From: Styela clava
Taxonomy: Eukaryota
Assembly (NCBI RefSeq): GCF_964204865.1
Contig: NC_135252.1
Span: 13,020,001 to 13,084,000, forward strand
Reading direction: 5' to 3'
DNA length: 64,000 nt
In this document: positions 43,713 to 64,000 of the stretch, piece by piece
How the letters are laid out: every line of letters begins with the position of its first letter
Numbering within the stretch: the stretch's first letter is position 1
Notes under the pieces: generated by a model
The model's input: only the letters and a program-made list of their open reading frames with translations
Database searches by the model: none
What the model was told of the DNA's origin: nothing
Position numbers and translations under genes: made by a program

Positions 43713-45166
43713 TTATCTAAATAAAAGTTCATCGATCTTTCGATCCCATTCGCTTCGAGCAAATACTGCGTCGTTGCAATTCGAGTTTGAACAGCAAAAG
43801 TGGCAAACATGGTCCTAAAAATAAATACAAATAAAATTTAACAGATTAAATTAAGAAATAATAGTACAGTATTGAAAATGTTGCTATTTTGATTTATCTT
43901 TTTACCTGTATTTATATGCATTTTACTGACGCGCTTTTAAATGTCAGATAGAGGAGCTCCAAGGAGTAATATTACCAAATAAGATGAAAAGTTTTCCTTA
44001 CCACTTCTTGTGACTGCGCTCTGGTGAGAGTTTGGGAATAGCAACCCTTTGTGTTGTCCTCACACGCTTTAGCAGTTTTGCATTCTCCATAAACTTTGTA
44101 CGAATCTGGCTTTATTTCAAGCTTGACCTGACACGAATTCTTAAAAACAATTAAAACAAAAATTATGAAAATATGTTTATATTATTTCAACTCAAAATTT
44201 GAAACGCATCCTGTTTTAAATCGGTGAAGTTATTGGAATGATTCTATATTTACTATCAATCATTAACTGTGAGTCGCCGTGTGTATATAACTCCCAACAA
44301 AGCTCAGCAATCTATTTTTCTGATTTGTTTATATTCCTTGTCATGCTAGGTTACCAAACTATAAACAATTTACCTGCAAGTACTTGCATTCTTTCACCTC
44401 GCTTGTAAGATCGTCCAATGTATCTCCAGAACCAACATAGCAAGTCCTCCTCGGCACTGGAGTTGGTTCTACGGCTTCACTTGTGTCGACGGGGTCAACA
44501 GGTTCAACAGTGTCATCAGGTTCAGCAAAGTCAATGGGGTCGACGGTATCAAATGGATCAACTCCGTCTACACCTTCAAAAGACTCATCAGGGACACCGG
44601 AGTCCACGGTTTCAAAGGGGTCAACAGGTTCAACAGGTTCAACGGGATCAACGGGATCAACAATGTCTTCTAAAATTGATTATATAACAATTGTCTGTTC
44701 ATTAAACTTTATTGAAAAATAAGTAGTATCTCTTGTTGCGTCTCAGAAACTGCTTAATTCAATGTTTTATCTCAGAATATCTGTCTGAAAATATATTGTA
44801 ACAGTTCAAATTGAAACTATTTCATTGTTTTACTCCAATATTAATCAATCATTTCAATATCAAGGATATTTGTATTTCGGAAATATGCAAAGAGCAAAGT
44901 TTTTTTTATGACTTATTATTCTCAACATACAATGAATTGTGATATTAAAATGATTGTAAATAATATTGCTAATGAATAAATAACGTGCTATGGTATTAGG
45001 GATTACTTAAAACTTTAGAATATAAATTCTTTTGCATATAGTTTGCGGTAGTTTTGGTCTACTCTATTAATTACTATGAAAGATAAATATTTATGTCATT
45101 CTTACCTTGACCGAATGTCAGTCCAATAACCAGAGAAATGAGAAGAACATATTTGAGAGCCATCAT
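43713..45166 (-). CDS. Secreted acidic three-finger-like Cys-rich protein, paralog A, 198 aa; exons 45166-45106, 44669-44374, 44139-44002, 43814-43713
   Basis: Signal peptide MMALKYVLLISLVIGLTFG, acidic V(D/E)P repeats, RR, then C-x17-C-x6-C-x16-C-x5-C-x6-C-x16-CHFCC-x4-CN. Intron phases 1,0,0 are shared with the paralogs. Confidence 0.88.
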
Positions 45167-46091
45167 GGTTGTTTTCAAAAATCTATTTAACCTAGTGCGT
45201 TAACTAAATATATCTAACTAAACATAATAAAAATTTTAATTCTTCAGCCACAAAAACAATAATCCGAGTGACATGAAAATGGTATGGCAAGCAAGAAGTA
45301 TATCAAAATATTGGATACAGTTTAGAAACGTTTATGGCAATGAGACCTGTGAGTTTTAATCAATCTGGTATGCACCATACAGTTTTCATAGTAACGTATC
45401 TTAAATAAAGTCAGTAAGTAAATGCAAAATTGTTATTGCGAACATATGCACCTTAAAAAGGTTGTATACTTGCTTTGCAATACCCCAAATTGTTACTACT
45501 CCTATGGTGACCAAATTCAATACGAAACATTAAAACAAAATTGGAAAACTTGACATATTTTTTAATGACCGCATTTTATTAATTTACCAAGTTTGGTTTG
45601 GATACCAATACAAAACTAATCGAAAACGACCAATGTAAAGTGAGGGAATAATGATAAACAGTCAGTATTTTTGATAAAACATCTGATTTCAGATAGCACA
45701 TTGACAGAGATCTCAAATAGGATTCCACCTAATTTACGTGAACAAACAGTGTATACAAATATATATGATATGATTAGCTCAATAACAGTTTTACTTTAGT
45801 TCTATTGTGGTAAACCTGGAGCAAATTTATATAAGGAAACCATTTGTGTCATGCTCTTCACTACTCAAATCCAGTTTTGTAAGAGGATTCCTACGACAAT
45901 CTAAAACAAACTGATCGAATTCATTTTTTCACTAGTTTCAAAAAAAACTTCAGCTCAGATTTTTGAACATATTATTGCGTATCAAAATCTATTTTTATTC
46001 TTTTTTTTTAATGTTTTTTTCTCTACAACAAATCACCACAAAAGGAGTATTAGTTAAATAAAATCTAAAGCTTCTATTTATATCGAGAATT

Positions 46092-61168: not shown

Positions 61169-63093
61169 TAGATTTAGCGACCAAATATATAAGGGGGGTA
61201 GAACAAATATTGAAAACAAGGTATTTATTATTTGAATCGCATAAGACTTGTAGAAATGAAATTTTATAATTCACTGCTGAATAATTTTTGAATTTTTCTA
61301 ACAATCCGGTATTTATGTGACATATTTTATTAGAATATATGATTAGAGCAATCCCATAACAATGCATGAATCATACTTTTATTACTCTAACTAGCAATGA
61401 AGTTGTTTTTTCTTGTAAATAGAGGTTACAATTTTATCAAAAAGTAAAGTAAATGAAGAGTAAAAGCGTGGTGGATTCAAATCCACCAAAAAAAGGAATT
61501 GTATAGATTTTTTCTGTGAACATCTAAGTCAATCTTAGTTGAACGCTTACATGTCATAAAAAATTACCTGTTATGAATAACTCTAACTAAAACCAATCAA
61601 TTAGAGATAAAAATAACTCGATCATAGGTAGAATGAGATCAACAGCTATAGGGAAATCAAATATATAACAAACCTCCATCATATATTGGACAGAATATTG
61701 TTGTTCAATGCCATATTTTTATCTCCATTTTGTCATGAAAAAAGGCCTTATAAACAAAAAAATTGGCGATTTTATTAAAATAGTTCGTGAATATGTGGAG
61801 ATCGGAACGGAATATATTCGTTTTATCTCTGCTAGATATGATTTTGGGTAGATTTTTTCAATTGTACAATTTTCCTAGCAATAAATTTTGCTGTGCCCAT
61901 ATAAAACCATTAAAACGGGTAGTTTTAAAGTAAAAATATAAAAAATCATAATTTATATTCTTTCGAAATGATTGATTTGGTTGTTTCTAAAACATTGAAA
62001 GCTTCTATGTTAGTGGAAATGCATACAATGCGTTTCTAGAACAAATAACGCCTTTTTTTAAATTTTAACTTCAAAATTAATTAATTTAATCTTGTAGTAA
62101 ACAGGTAAAGAAAAAATTGTTGTATCCAAAGTATTTCTTATCCTAACACAGCAACGTGAGATATCATATGAAAATTATCTTTAAAAATAGGTAACGGTAA
62201 CCTATGTCGAAATGTATGACCTATCACAAACAATTGCATATTGATAACACAGTATGAATTCAATACTGGTTAACAGCAAATGTTTTCCCTGACATTTCTT
62301 CATTAGACATTTACTTCACACCATTTACTTATTAAAGTCGAAGATGTTTTTCTATTATATTGAAATATATTTTATATGAGACACCGAATGACCAAACTAT
62401 CGAATATATCATTTGCTTTTTATTTAAAATTTGATACTTGGTTTACCGCATTTTATGAGAAATAGCGACACACGTTATTACATAACACATTTTAATCAGC
62501 ATGAGCAATATATTCTTCTCATAAATTGACAAACTGAAATTAATAGAAGAAATTATCAAACAAACATATACCACAATGTAACACTTTCGTAAATGTCGAC
62601 TTGCACGTCATCTCAATGCGTAATTAATCTATCATTATTGTAAAGATTAGAAAAACCAAAGTTTATTAAACAGACATGTATTAGTACGTCTGAGCATGAC
62701 TCACTGGTTTCAATTTAGCCTGAATACTAACACGAAAACTGTGAGAAATATTGATCAAAATATGACGCGATTTCAAAGTAATCTAAGAATAATTTACTTT
62801 AAATATATAAAAACTAGTAAGCTTAGTTTTATAAATACTACTCAATATGAATATTATCTTGAAATTTTGTGCGTTTGCACGCTTAACGAAACATACTCAT
62901 CACGGATATGTATTGTATATTTTTCCTCGTCTTGTTACGCTATTTACTTTCGTTTTCTCTAATTACCCGTTCGCAGGTTTGACGCTATTTTTTTGTGTAT
63001 TCAGCATAATATCTGTTTTGAAATTTCTTTTCAAGTTATATATAGGAAACAATATTGTCAGATATAACTTGTTCAGCCAGAAGAAGAAACACA

Positions 63094-64000
63094 ATGTACG
63101 TCAAACTACTTTTTACTGCGTGTTTAGCGATTTGCATTGAGAAAGTTGTTCTTCAAGGTAAGTTGTTTATTTGTATACTCATTATAACTGATGATTCTTT
63201 CAAGCTGTTAATTAATAGGGTACATGTGACATAGGTGATCACCATCACTAAACGACATCTTAATAAAGCATGTAACAAACATGTTTACGTATCTGAATAC
63301 CTTCATGTGTGGTAGTCAAAGGATGTTAACTATGATTGTTTTAAATAGAATTGCTTAAAGCGTGATCGCGCGTACCCAGTCAGAAATGAAAAAGCCTCAT
63401 CTCCAAGCAAAGTTACGAATACTATAATAAATATTATAGCATAAAAATACGAATTATTAAATACCAAATACCGGAAAGCTTAGGTTAATACGATCCGAAA
63501 AGCTATGACGTGTATTCCACATAACTGAGGTTCTTGGTGAAACGCTTTGGGCATAAATTTTTGAGTGAAATAGGTACACTGCAGCAAACGGATGGAAGTT
63601 TACTGACAATTGGCTGGAAACTTTACTTGGAGAGACAAGCTCCGAAATTTATTTTATCCAAAGTATTTCTCAGTTCAGAATATTACAGTTCATTATAATA
63701 TATGTAGAATTTTGTACTCATTTTGTCACGAATCGGCACTAATTTTACACTGGTGATTGACTCTTTTTACAAGCATGACGTCCATACGTAACTCCATGTT
63801 ATTTTGGATTCTGAGTAAAGGCTGCTTTTATTAAAATCATATTTCAAATATCCAGGTTTTAACGATGGCTTCGATGATTTCAGTGATTTATTTGACGATA
63901 TACCAGCAACAGTTCTTCCAACACCCACTAAAGATCCAGAATGTTATATCGGTAGAACATTTTTTAATGGAACTCATATTACATTGAACAATCAAACGAG
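63094..64000 (+). CDS. Secreted acidic three-finger-like protein, paralog E (5' part; runs off the window); exons 63094-63157 and 63856->64000
   Basis: Signal-like exon MYVKLLFTACLAICIEKVVLQ with a phase-1 GTAAGT donor. Exon 2 GFNDGFDDFSDLFDDIPATVLPTPTKDPECYIGRTFFNGTH.. matches paralog C (C.SGDTFFNGT) and A (PTP..CYVG). Confidence 0.8.

Follow-up and report, generated by a model that had tools for sequence, protein, structure and literature searches.

Background

Proteins of the Ly6/uPAR (LU) superfamily have a three-finger beta fold of 60-90 residues. Its eight core cysteines end in the motif CC-x4-CN (PMC4029566, excerpt; sources so marked are cited for the part of their text that was available). 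Where the function of LU proteins has been tested, they were found to bind enzymes or receptors of the membrane, and binding by three-finger proteins occurs through the loops (PMC13719153 and PMC11595613, excerpts). In a 2026 invertebrate survey, three-finger proteins were found in all animal phyla surveyed and in all 387 genomes (PMC13719153); 36 of them belonged to its one invertebrate chordate, and no tunicate was included (PMC13719153, Table 1). Because three-finger proteins are widespread in the surveyed phyla, secreted members and local expansions are ordinary. Here, a group of such genes is described in the ascidian Styela clava. It was found in a window of 64,000 nucleotides (GCF_964204865.1, contig NC_135252.1, positions 13,020,001 to 13,084,000 of the forward strand), where positions 43,713 to 64,000 carry three complete genes (A, B and C), a fourth gene cut by the window edge (E) and a lone exon (D).

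The described proteins nearest in cysteine register are LYPD1 (Lynx2), LYPD6 and LYPD6B. They share with the ascidian proteins the pattern C-x16-C-x5-C-x10-C-x8..12-C-x2-CC-x4-CN and an extra cysteine pair in finger 3, and their folds match the ascidian models with Z scores of 7.1-8.8. However, the ascidian proteins lack the second and third cysteines, show no hydrophobic anchor at the C-terminus, bear variable low-complexity arms and are only 16-23% identical to them. GPIHBP1 consists of a signal peptide, a disordered acidic N-terminal segment and one folded LU domain, and its arm can stabilise the bound enzyme (PMC4755760, excerpt). Its layout is like that of several Styela proteins, and its fold matches with Z 8.0-8.8; GPIHBP1 is GPI-anchored and binds lipoprotein lipase, whereas no anchor was seen in the ascidian proteins (judged from hydropathy only). 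The likeness is probably convergent, since the acidic arm is restricted to some Styela paralogs. SLURP1/2, plethodontid modulating factor (PMF) and snake three-finger toxins resemble the ascidian proteins in being secreted (predicted for the latter) and duplicated and in having a single domain with a CC-x4-CN end; PMF is also acidic, as are most Styela paralogs. In contrast to these systems, the ascidian proteins have a different cysteine set, long arms and signs of purifying selection, and the fold scores are lower.

Gene structure and splicing

Six-frame motif scans and exon-by-exon translation yielded genes A, B and C with GT..AG introns of phases 1,0,0 and ten cysteines each, spaced by 17-19, 6, 16, 5, 6-10, 12-16, 2, 0 and 4 residues. 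The four-exon layout, phases and spacing given by the first-pass annotation were thus recovered at the same coordinates, and the translations were 100% equal to S. clava RefSeq proteins, every one of which is named 'uncharacterized'. Annotation versions differ here: LOC120342548 formerly denoted A-type proteins and now denotes B, with a new identifier for A.

In each of the three proteins, a predicted signal peptide is followed by an acidic segment, a ten-Cys LU domain and a tail. The acidic segment of A is a 77-aa D/V/P/E repeat, and its domain (residues 97-179) is followed by a short tail predicted to be helical; B has a 61-aa acidic segment and a basic tail. In C, only a 15-residue acidic spacer precedes the domain (residues 32-116), and most of the acidity resides in the C-terminal tail (net -11). 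By domain identity, the closest paralogs are B with A (51%) and E with C (59%). Gene E, which had been read as cut by the window edge, was completed beyond it.

It had been claimed that the family appears only after splicing, and contigs from public runs support spliced transcripts of A, B, C, E and two further genes, F and G, described below (the RNA nature of these runs is a guess by the tool and is not on record). Among the joints listed, intron 2 of C was joined in 4/4 runs and intron 3 in 3/4, and the exon 1-2 joint was a loose end in one of the four. For both A and B, exons 2 and 4 lay on a single contig, separated by the length of exon 3 plus about 1 base, in 2/4 runs. All three introns of E were joined in two of the three RNA-like runs, two introns of F in one and the introns of G in two; the DNA-like run X10 crossed the introns of E, F and G unspliced. 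Contig depth was 10,760 for C in run X1 versus 272, 78 and 3 in X5, X6 and X7, and 7-16 for A and B (X1, X5), but the runs were chosen with gene C and depth cannot rank the genes. Run X7 bears a different organism label, yet it matched C nearly letter for letter.

Exon D, previously called an orphan exon, proved to be a lone, damaged last exon: its score was reached by 0/100 shuffles of C exon 4, and a search of 58-63 kb with exons 1-3 of C and E gave nothing above shuffles (scores reached by 7-65 of 100). A candidate exon-2 remnant near 60022 was a weak protein match (E 0.39) that was not confirmed at the DNA level. As an alternative last exon of C, D has a weak acceptor, and no such joint was among those listed.

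Extent of the gene group

The local expansion proposed for this family extends well beyond the window. To the right, the remainder of E is followed by three further paralogs, F, G and H, and gene I lies about 64 kb to the left of A. All eight genes (A, B, C, E, F, G, H and I) are stop-free, share a common exon plan and show 0-3 differences per domain from database proteins. On the same contig, a second cluster contains five candidates, J-N, for which exons 3 and 4 and most exons 2 were seen. N is identical in sequence to a RefSeq protein. The database model P0031 appears to fuse parts of the neighbours M and L. A genome query with a Ciona member found no additional cluster. The genome searches give lower bounds; at least 13 candidate genes in two clusters were found in S. 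clava.

F and E correspond to gene models 000079F.48 and.49, which are paired with Ciona KY.Chr10.990 (supplement of PMC9953650, excerpt). Models.46-.52 are absent among the endostyle markers listed in the available part of the PMC10980280 supplement. Model.53 is among those markers, and the membrane-protein gene to the left of the cluster may be a candidate for this cell marker.

Predicted fold and cysteine register

AlphaFold2 models were built for C from 8 sequences and for A from 24 sequences. Both contain a confident beta-rich domain (predicted local distance difference test score, pLDDT, about 83-96 in A) and an acidic arm without predicted structure. By title, all 47 and 41 Foldseek rows listed for C and A, respectively, were three-finger chains. 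When model A was compared with 48,161 representative chains, ranks 1-39 were three-finger proteins and the first unrelated chain appeared at Z 3.2. The best matches, tied in the top rows, were Lynx1 (Z 9.2, root-mean-square deviation (rmsd) 2.2, 73 residues aligned), GPIHBP1 (8.8), LYPD6B (8.8) and Prod1 (8.1). Lower scores were obtained for SLURP-2 (7.1), toxins (up to 7.5), ActRII/BMPRII (5.3-5.5) and PMF (4.2), and model C agreed with model A. A three-finger Ly6/uPAR fold is therefore predicted for the family domain, as had been suggested from its CC-x4-CN end.

A 24-sequence profile, in which the ten cysteines and the final Asn are invariant (24/24), was compared with PDB sequences. The best matches were LYPD1 (E 0.032) and LYPD6 (E 0.044), in an E range of 0.032-0.06 and with the whole domain aligned. 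In the LYPD1 alignment every one of the ten family cysteines was paired, and the second and third cysteines of LYPD1 were left unmatched. This register and profile match mark the domain as a 12-Cys LYPD1/LYPD6 type that has lost the pair of finger 1. Pfam UPAR_LY6_2 gave E values of 3e-4 for H and 1.9e-3 for F (best 21.4 bits versus a cut-off of 31.5), and at E<=1 weak matches were found to Toxin_TOLIP (8/24 members) and UPAR_LY6 (5/24). Single exons gave no Pfam match (0/9), nor did whole A and B at E<=10.

Predicted secretion and charge of the proteins

The signal peptide and the lack of a GPI signal noted earlier for A-C agree with hydropathy in all eight proteins, which is the only basis for both. 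N-terminal hydropathy peaks at 2.1-3.5 in an 11-residue window, and C-terminal 11-residue hydropathy is <=1.35 with tails of 11-24 residues, so that no hydrophobic anchor is seen. The stop codon lies 11-24 residues past the domain in 8/8 genes, leaving no transmembrane helix or kinase domain. These small proteins are likely secreted, and they are predicted to lack a GPI anchor.

Ahead of the domain, A, B, C, E, G and I have an acidic stretch of 15-77 residues (27-40% D/E), whereas this stretch is rich in Gly in F and rich in Thr/Pro in H, with 10-11% D/E in these two. Mature proteins are acidic (pI 4.1-4.9) in seven of the eight, and seven of the eight database proteins have no free cysteine. 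Domain identity among the eight paralogs is 29-59%.

Homologs and phylogeny

An eight-sequence profile search retrieved 88 representatives at E<=0.001 among 1.84 billion. Of these, 73 were parsed, 38 with a CxxC motif and 35 without it; after six were dropped (four fragments, one 8-Cys repeat and one mis-parsed sequence), 29 ten-Cys domains were retained, 21 of them outside the query. An organism name was available for 15, and all 15 are ascidian: six from Ciona intestinalis, three from C. savignyi, five from Clavelina lepadiformis and one from Styela. One further homolog is Styela K by sequence. A tunicate origin is upheld, whereas the description of the family as 'orphan' must be dropped in view of these 15 named homologs of the same ten-Cys type, the Styela one coming from the second cluster. 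When exon 3 was used for word-based protein searches, only Styela proteins were returned (3, then 8); the full hidden Markov model search reached the other ascidians. Some C. savignyi members already carry the UniProt label 'UPAR/Ly6 domain-containing'. One Ciona member is labelled 'ZAN protein precursor'; a link to KH.C1.1093_ZAN (PMC6952182) was not made, as ZAN there stands for at least two Ciona genes.

The D/E-rich segment assigned to A-C is present in all three, though short in C, but it is not a family trait: it occurs in 6/8 genes of the Styela group, and no long acidic arm was found in the 14 named non-Styela members. In 11 of these 14, <=15 residues separate position 20 from the domain, and in the other three this segment has 9-14% D/E. 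Long tails of Thr/Pro repeats are seen in P0019 and P0022, both from Ciona.

In a tree of 67 domains, 28 of the 29 ten-Cys rows fell on a single branch (96/88), apart from the CxxC type, and A, B, C, E, F and H clustered with two further sequences (98/88). This tree has few columns, its bootstrap was unsettled and finger 1 was included. Without finger 1, 24 of the 29 rows grouped (SH 80) and the label required five changes on the free tree; a single clade of 28 was not rejected (p-AU 0.71).

Among the CxxC relatives are proteins of sea cucumbers and sea urchins as well as modular proteins of ascidians that contain EGF, sushi or vWA domains. They have the motif C-x5-C-x-NN...QC in common with the ten-Cys type, and where CxxC-type loci were seen in Styela, their reading frame is interrupted at the site known from the ten-Cys genes, just before the fifth canonical cysteine. 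CxxC domains differ in having 12-13 cysteines in the span counted and in lying mostly inside long proteins (with EGF, sushi or vWA domains, or an echinoderm adhesion GPCR); the CxxC motif is missing from 8/8 Styela proteins of the group. In the Styela genome, CxxC-type LU repeats were seen in modular genes on contigs C4, C9, C17, C16 and C1, one of them between an EGF and a sushi-like module. A suggested likeness to Cys repeats of tunicate epidermal proteins held for these modular EGF/sushi/vWA proteins, and the oikosin link proposed with it was not shown: no looked-up homolog is so named, and the main text of PMC3390340 does not mention Ly6/uPAR. Oikosins are constituents of the Oikopleura house and are expressed in its oikoplastic epithelium; Styela is an ascidian.

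Literature searches with six Styela gene and protein identifiers, five Ciona identifiers and the subfamily found no paper, most subscription papers being outside the search; none of the searched terms was found in the available part of the PMC7540406 supplement. It may be concluded that these genes represent an ascidian-wide, apparently undescribed subfamily of the well-known Ly6/uPAR superfamily.

Evolution of the paralogs

In all seven paralog pairs tested (of 28 possible), the proportion of nonsynonymous differences (pN 0.25-0.41) was below that of synonymous differences (pS 0.76-0.92), and synonymous sites were saturated. In the young pair J/K, exon 3 gave dN 0.07 versus dS 0.44 over 46 codons. 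Because pS is saturated and pN < pS in 7/7 pairs, the divergence appears to be old and constrained, so the label 'fast-diverging' does not fit. Judged from these counts, the duplicates are old and under purifying selection; the counts are compatible with selection at a few sites. In B exon 2, three of the four run variants listed alter a residue, two of them in finger 1. The subfamily would have been derived from a 12-Cys LYPD1/LYPD6-type domain by loss of the finger-1 disulfide, and the ancestral type of domain would also have been used as a module in large ascidian proteins.

Possible function

It is proposed that these small, likely secreted LU proteins of an ascidian-wide subfamily act in soluble form by binding or modulating proteins outside the cell or at its surface, with a probability of about 0.5. 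One soluble domain that optionally carries a charged arm fits a diffusible binder. Each paralog would bind its target through the fingers, and in six of the eight genes the disordered acidic arm would, as in GPIHBP1, help to capture a basic partner or surface electrostatically.

Several points weigh against this proposal. No Foldseek match of models A and C reaches E 0.001, and the matches to known LU families are all under the Pfam curated cut-offs; LYPD1 is for these reasons the nearest register rather than a demonstrated ortholog. The canonical pairing of the core disulfides is inferred from the cysteine register. No partner, tissue or activity for the family was found in any search made. 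The starfish LYPD1-like protein Lystar5 pulled down integrin and not the acetylcholine receptor (PMC11595613, excerpt), and therefore a common three-finger fold shows no function. The nearest modular relatives, with EGF, sushi or vWA domains, and the mucin-like tails of some Ciona members fit a matrix role equally well.

Such a matrix role, although possible, is clearly less probable than that of soluble binders. The proteins would be structural or adhesive parts of the tunic, mucus net or other extracellular matrix. Their LU domain would attach to glycans or proteins of the matrix, and their arms, whether acidic, rich in Gly or rich in Thr/Pro, would serve as spacers or ion-binding tails. The adjacency of CxxC-type LU repeats to EGF and sushi-like modules in the Styela genome, relatives named 'Sushi domain-containing' and 'P-selectin-like' (with vWA), the Thr/Pro tails of P0019 and P0022 and the freedom of the N-terminal arms to vary in length and composition are consistent with it. 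However, the Styela proteins are small and single-domain, seven of the eight offer no free cysteine for cross-linking, evidence from tunic or mucus proteomes was not found, and the silence of the oikosin paper's main text also counts against it.

A more specific variant of the binder proposal appears doubtful. Here, the proteins would be convergent, soluble ascidian counterparts of GPIHBP1, built on a Lynx2/LYPD6-type domain minus one disulfide and the anchor, and the Styela acidic arm would capture and stabilise a basic secreted enzyme or signalling ligand, with a different partner for each paralog.

Innate-defence effectors (antimicrobial, anti-fouling, complement-regulating or toxin-like) shed into the tunic or blood are slightly less probable still. 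Defence genes are commonly expanded in tandem, toxins are found among secreted three-finger proteins, and the fold matches included chains of CD59 and snake toxins; a defence role for secreted invertebrate members is raised, as a hypothesis only, in PMC13719153. Against this stand the acidity of 7/8 mature proteins, unlike cationic membrane-active effectors, the lack of any sign of positive selection in the pairs described above and the count of 0-3 differences per domain from one database version to another.

Water-borne pheromones or gamete-recognition proteins, comparable to salamander PMF and fish Bouncer, are improbable. PMF proteins are secreted, carry negative charge and form a multi-copy three-finger family whose isoforms are about 30% identical (PMC4029566, excerpt), and domain identities among the Styela paralogs are 29-59%, but the name 'Sodefrin-like factor' on one Clavelina member is just a database label.

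Least probable are soluble decoys that would descend from the ectodomains of type II activin/BMP receptors and bind TGF-beta-family ligands. Type II activin receptors likewise have no disulfide in finger 1 and carry an additional one in finger 3, an Activin_recp cluster came first for C in an Atlas feature search (0.89, a lead only) and Activin_recp weakly matched 4/24 members (best E 0.047), but ActRII/BMPRII scored Z 5.3-5.5 (rmsd 3.9-4.3) versus 8.1-9.2 for LU proteins, the profile found LYPD1, LYPD6 and CD59 and no receptor among 23 PDB sequences at E<=10, and of the three positions presumed, by cysteine register, to match the receptors' aromatic ligand-binding triad, only one is aromatic here, with aromatic residues in 1, 0 and 20 of the 24 sequences.

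Features of the window and its surroundings

The coordinates of the genes and of neighbouring features are collected in the table.

Table. Gene group and surrounding features (window positions unless a contig is named; exons in order of transcription)
Feature	Strand	Position	Description
Gene A	minus	45166-45106, 44669-44374, 44139-44002, 43814-43713 (span 43713..45166)	4 exons, 198 aa, = XP_077966735.1
Gene B	minus	47546-47489, 46943-46696, 46410-46267, 46190-46092 (span 46092..47546)	4 exons, 182 aa, = XP_039267361.2
Gene C	plus	56577-56628, 56857-56972, 57175-57312, 57655-57771 (span 56577..57771)	4 exons, 140 aa, = XP_039267372.2
D, lone last-exon remnant	plus	61097-61168	Resembles C exon 4 (78% over 65 nt); CC -> CR
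Gene E	plus	63094..64000: exon 1 63094-63157, exon 2 from 63856	159 aa when completed past window edge
OATP/SLCO transporter gene	plus	~10400-21000	E 5.9e-14
SLC22-like exons	minus	~22700-25800	Resemblance by eye; no Pfam match for one exon tested
Actin gene	plus	29724-31102	Two introns; Pfam Actin E 1.8e-55
Secreted C-type lectin gene	minus	32676-33959	Lectin_C E 1.6e-12
Membrane-protein exons	minus	35389-36438	Left neighbour of cluster; single-pass
Repeat family	 	52700-54750	Nested copies, ~210-bp spacing
Inverted-repeat element	 	58000-58540	Short; 8-bp direct repeat at flanks; hAT-MITE-like
Second, similar element	 	~58685-59182	
Second cluster (J-N)	 	C3:6477000-6495000 (~6.48-6.49 Mb)	Five candidates
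CxxC-type LU gene	 	C3:288600-290700	UPAR_LY6_2 E 3.8e-5
Transposase-like frame	plus	L010:4934-6040	369 codons; DDE_3 E 2e-6

The N-terminus of the actin gene presumably resembles that of ascidian muscle actin. The lectin is collectin-like, with a short Gly-Pro-Pro repeat after the signal peptide, and the single-pass membrane protein has a Ser/Thr-rich stalk and a Tyr-bearing tail. The nested repeat copies, matched by many run contigs, lie in the 9 kb that separate B and C, two genes of divergent orientation, and both inverted-repeat elements lie between C and D. The gene with a CxxC-type LU domain on C3 has a possible second Cys repeat and a Thr/Arg-rich stretch, and the transposase-like frame is located about 15 kb to the left of gene I.

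Significance

The importance of these genes is conditional on the discovery of a partner or tissue role. If the GPIHBP1-like reading were true, they would give the sister group of vertebrates its first functional three-finger family and represent convergence on a design that couples an acidic arm to an LU domain. What is new is an ascidian subfamily, now defined, that has a cysteine set of its own and two clusters in Styela, whose members were labelled 'uncharacterized' because the subfamily lies below the Pfam cut-offs. A ready profile and Ciona homologs (e.g. LOC100181139, LOC100178918 and KY.Chr10.990) are now available, and expression and knockout tests are routine in Ciona.

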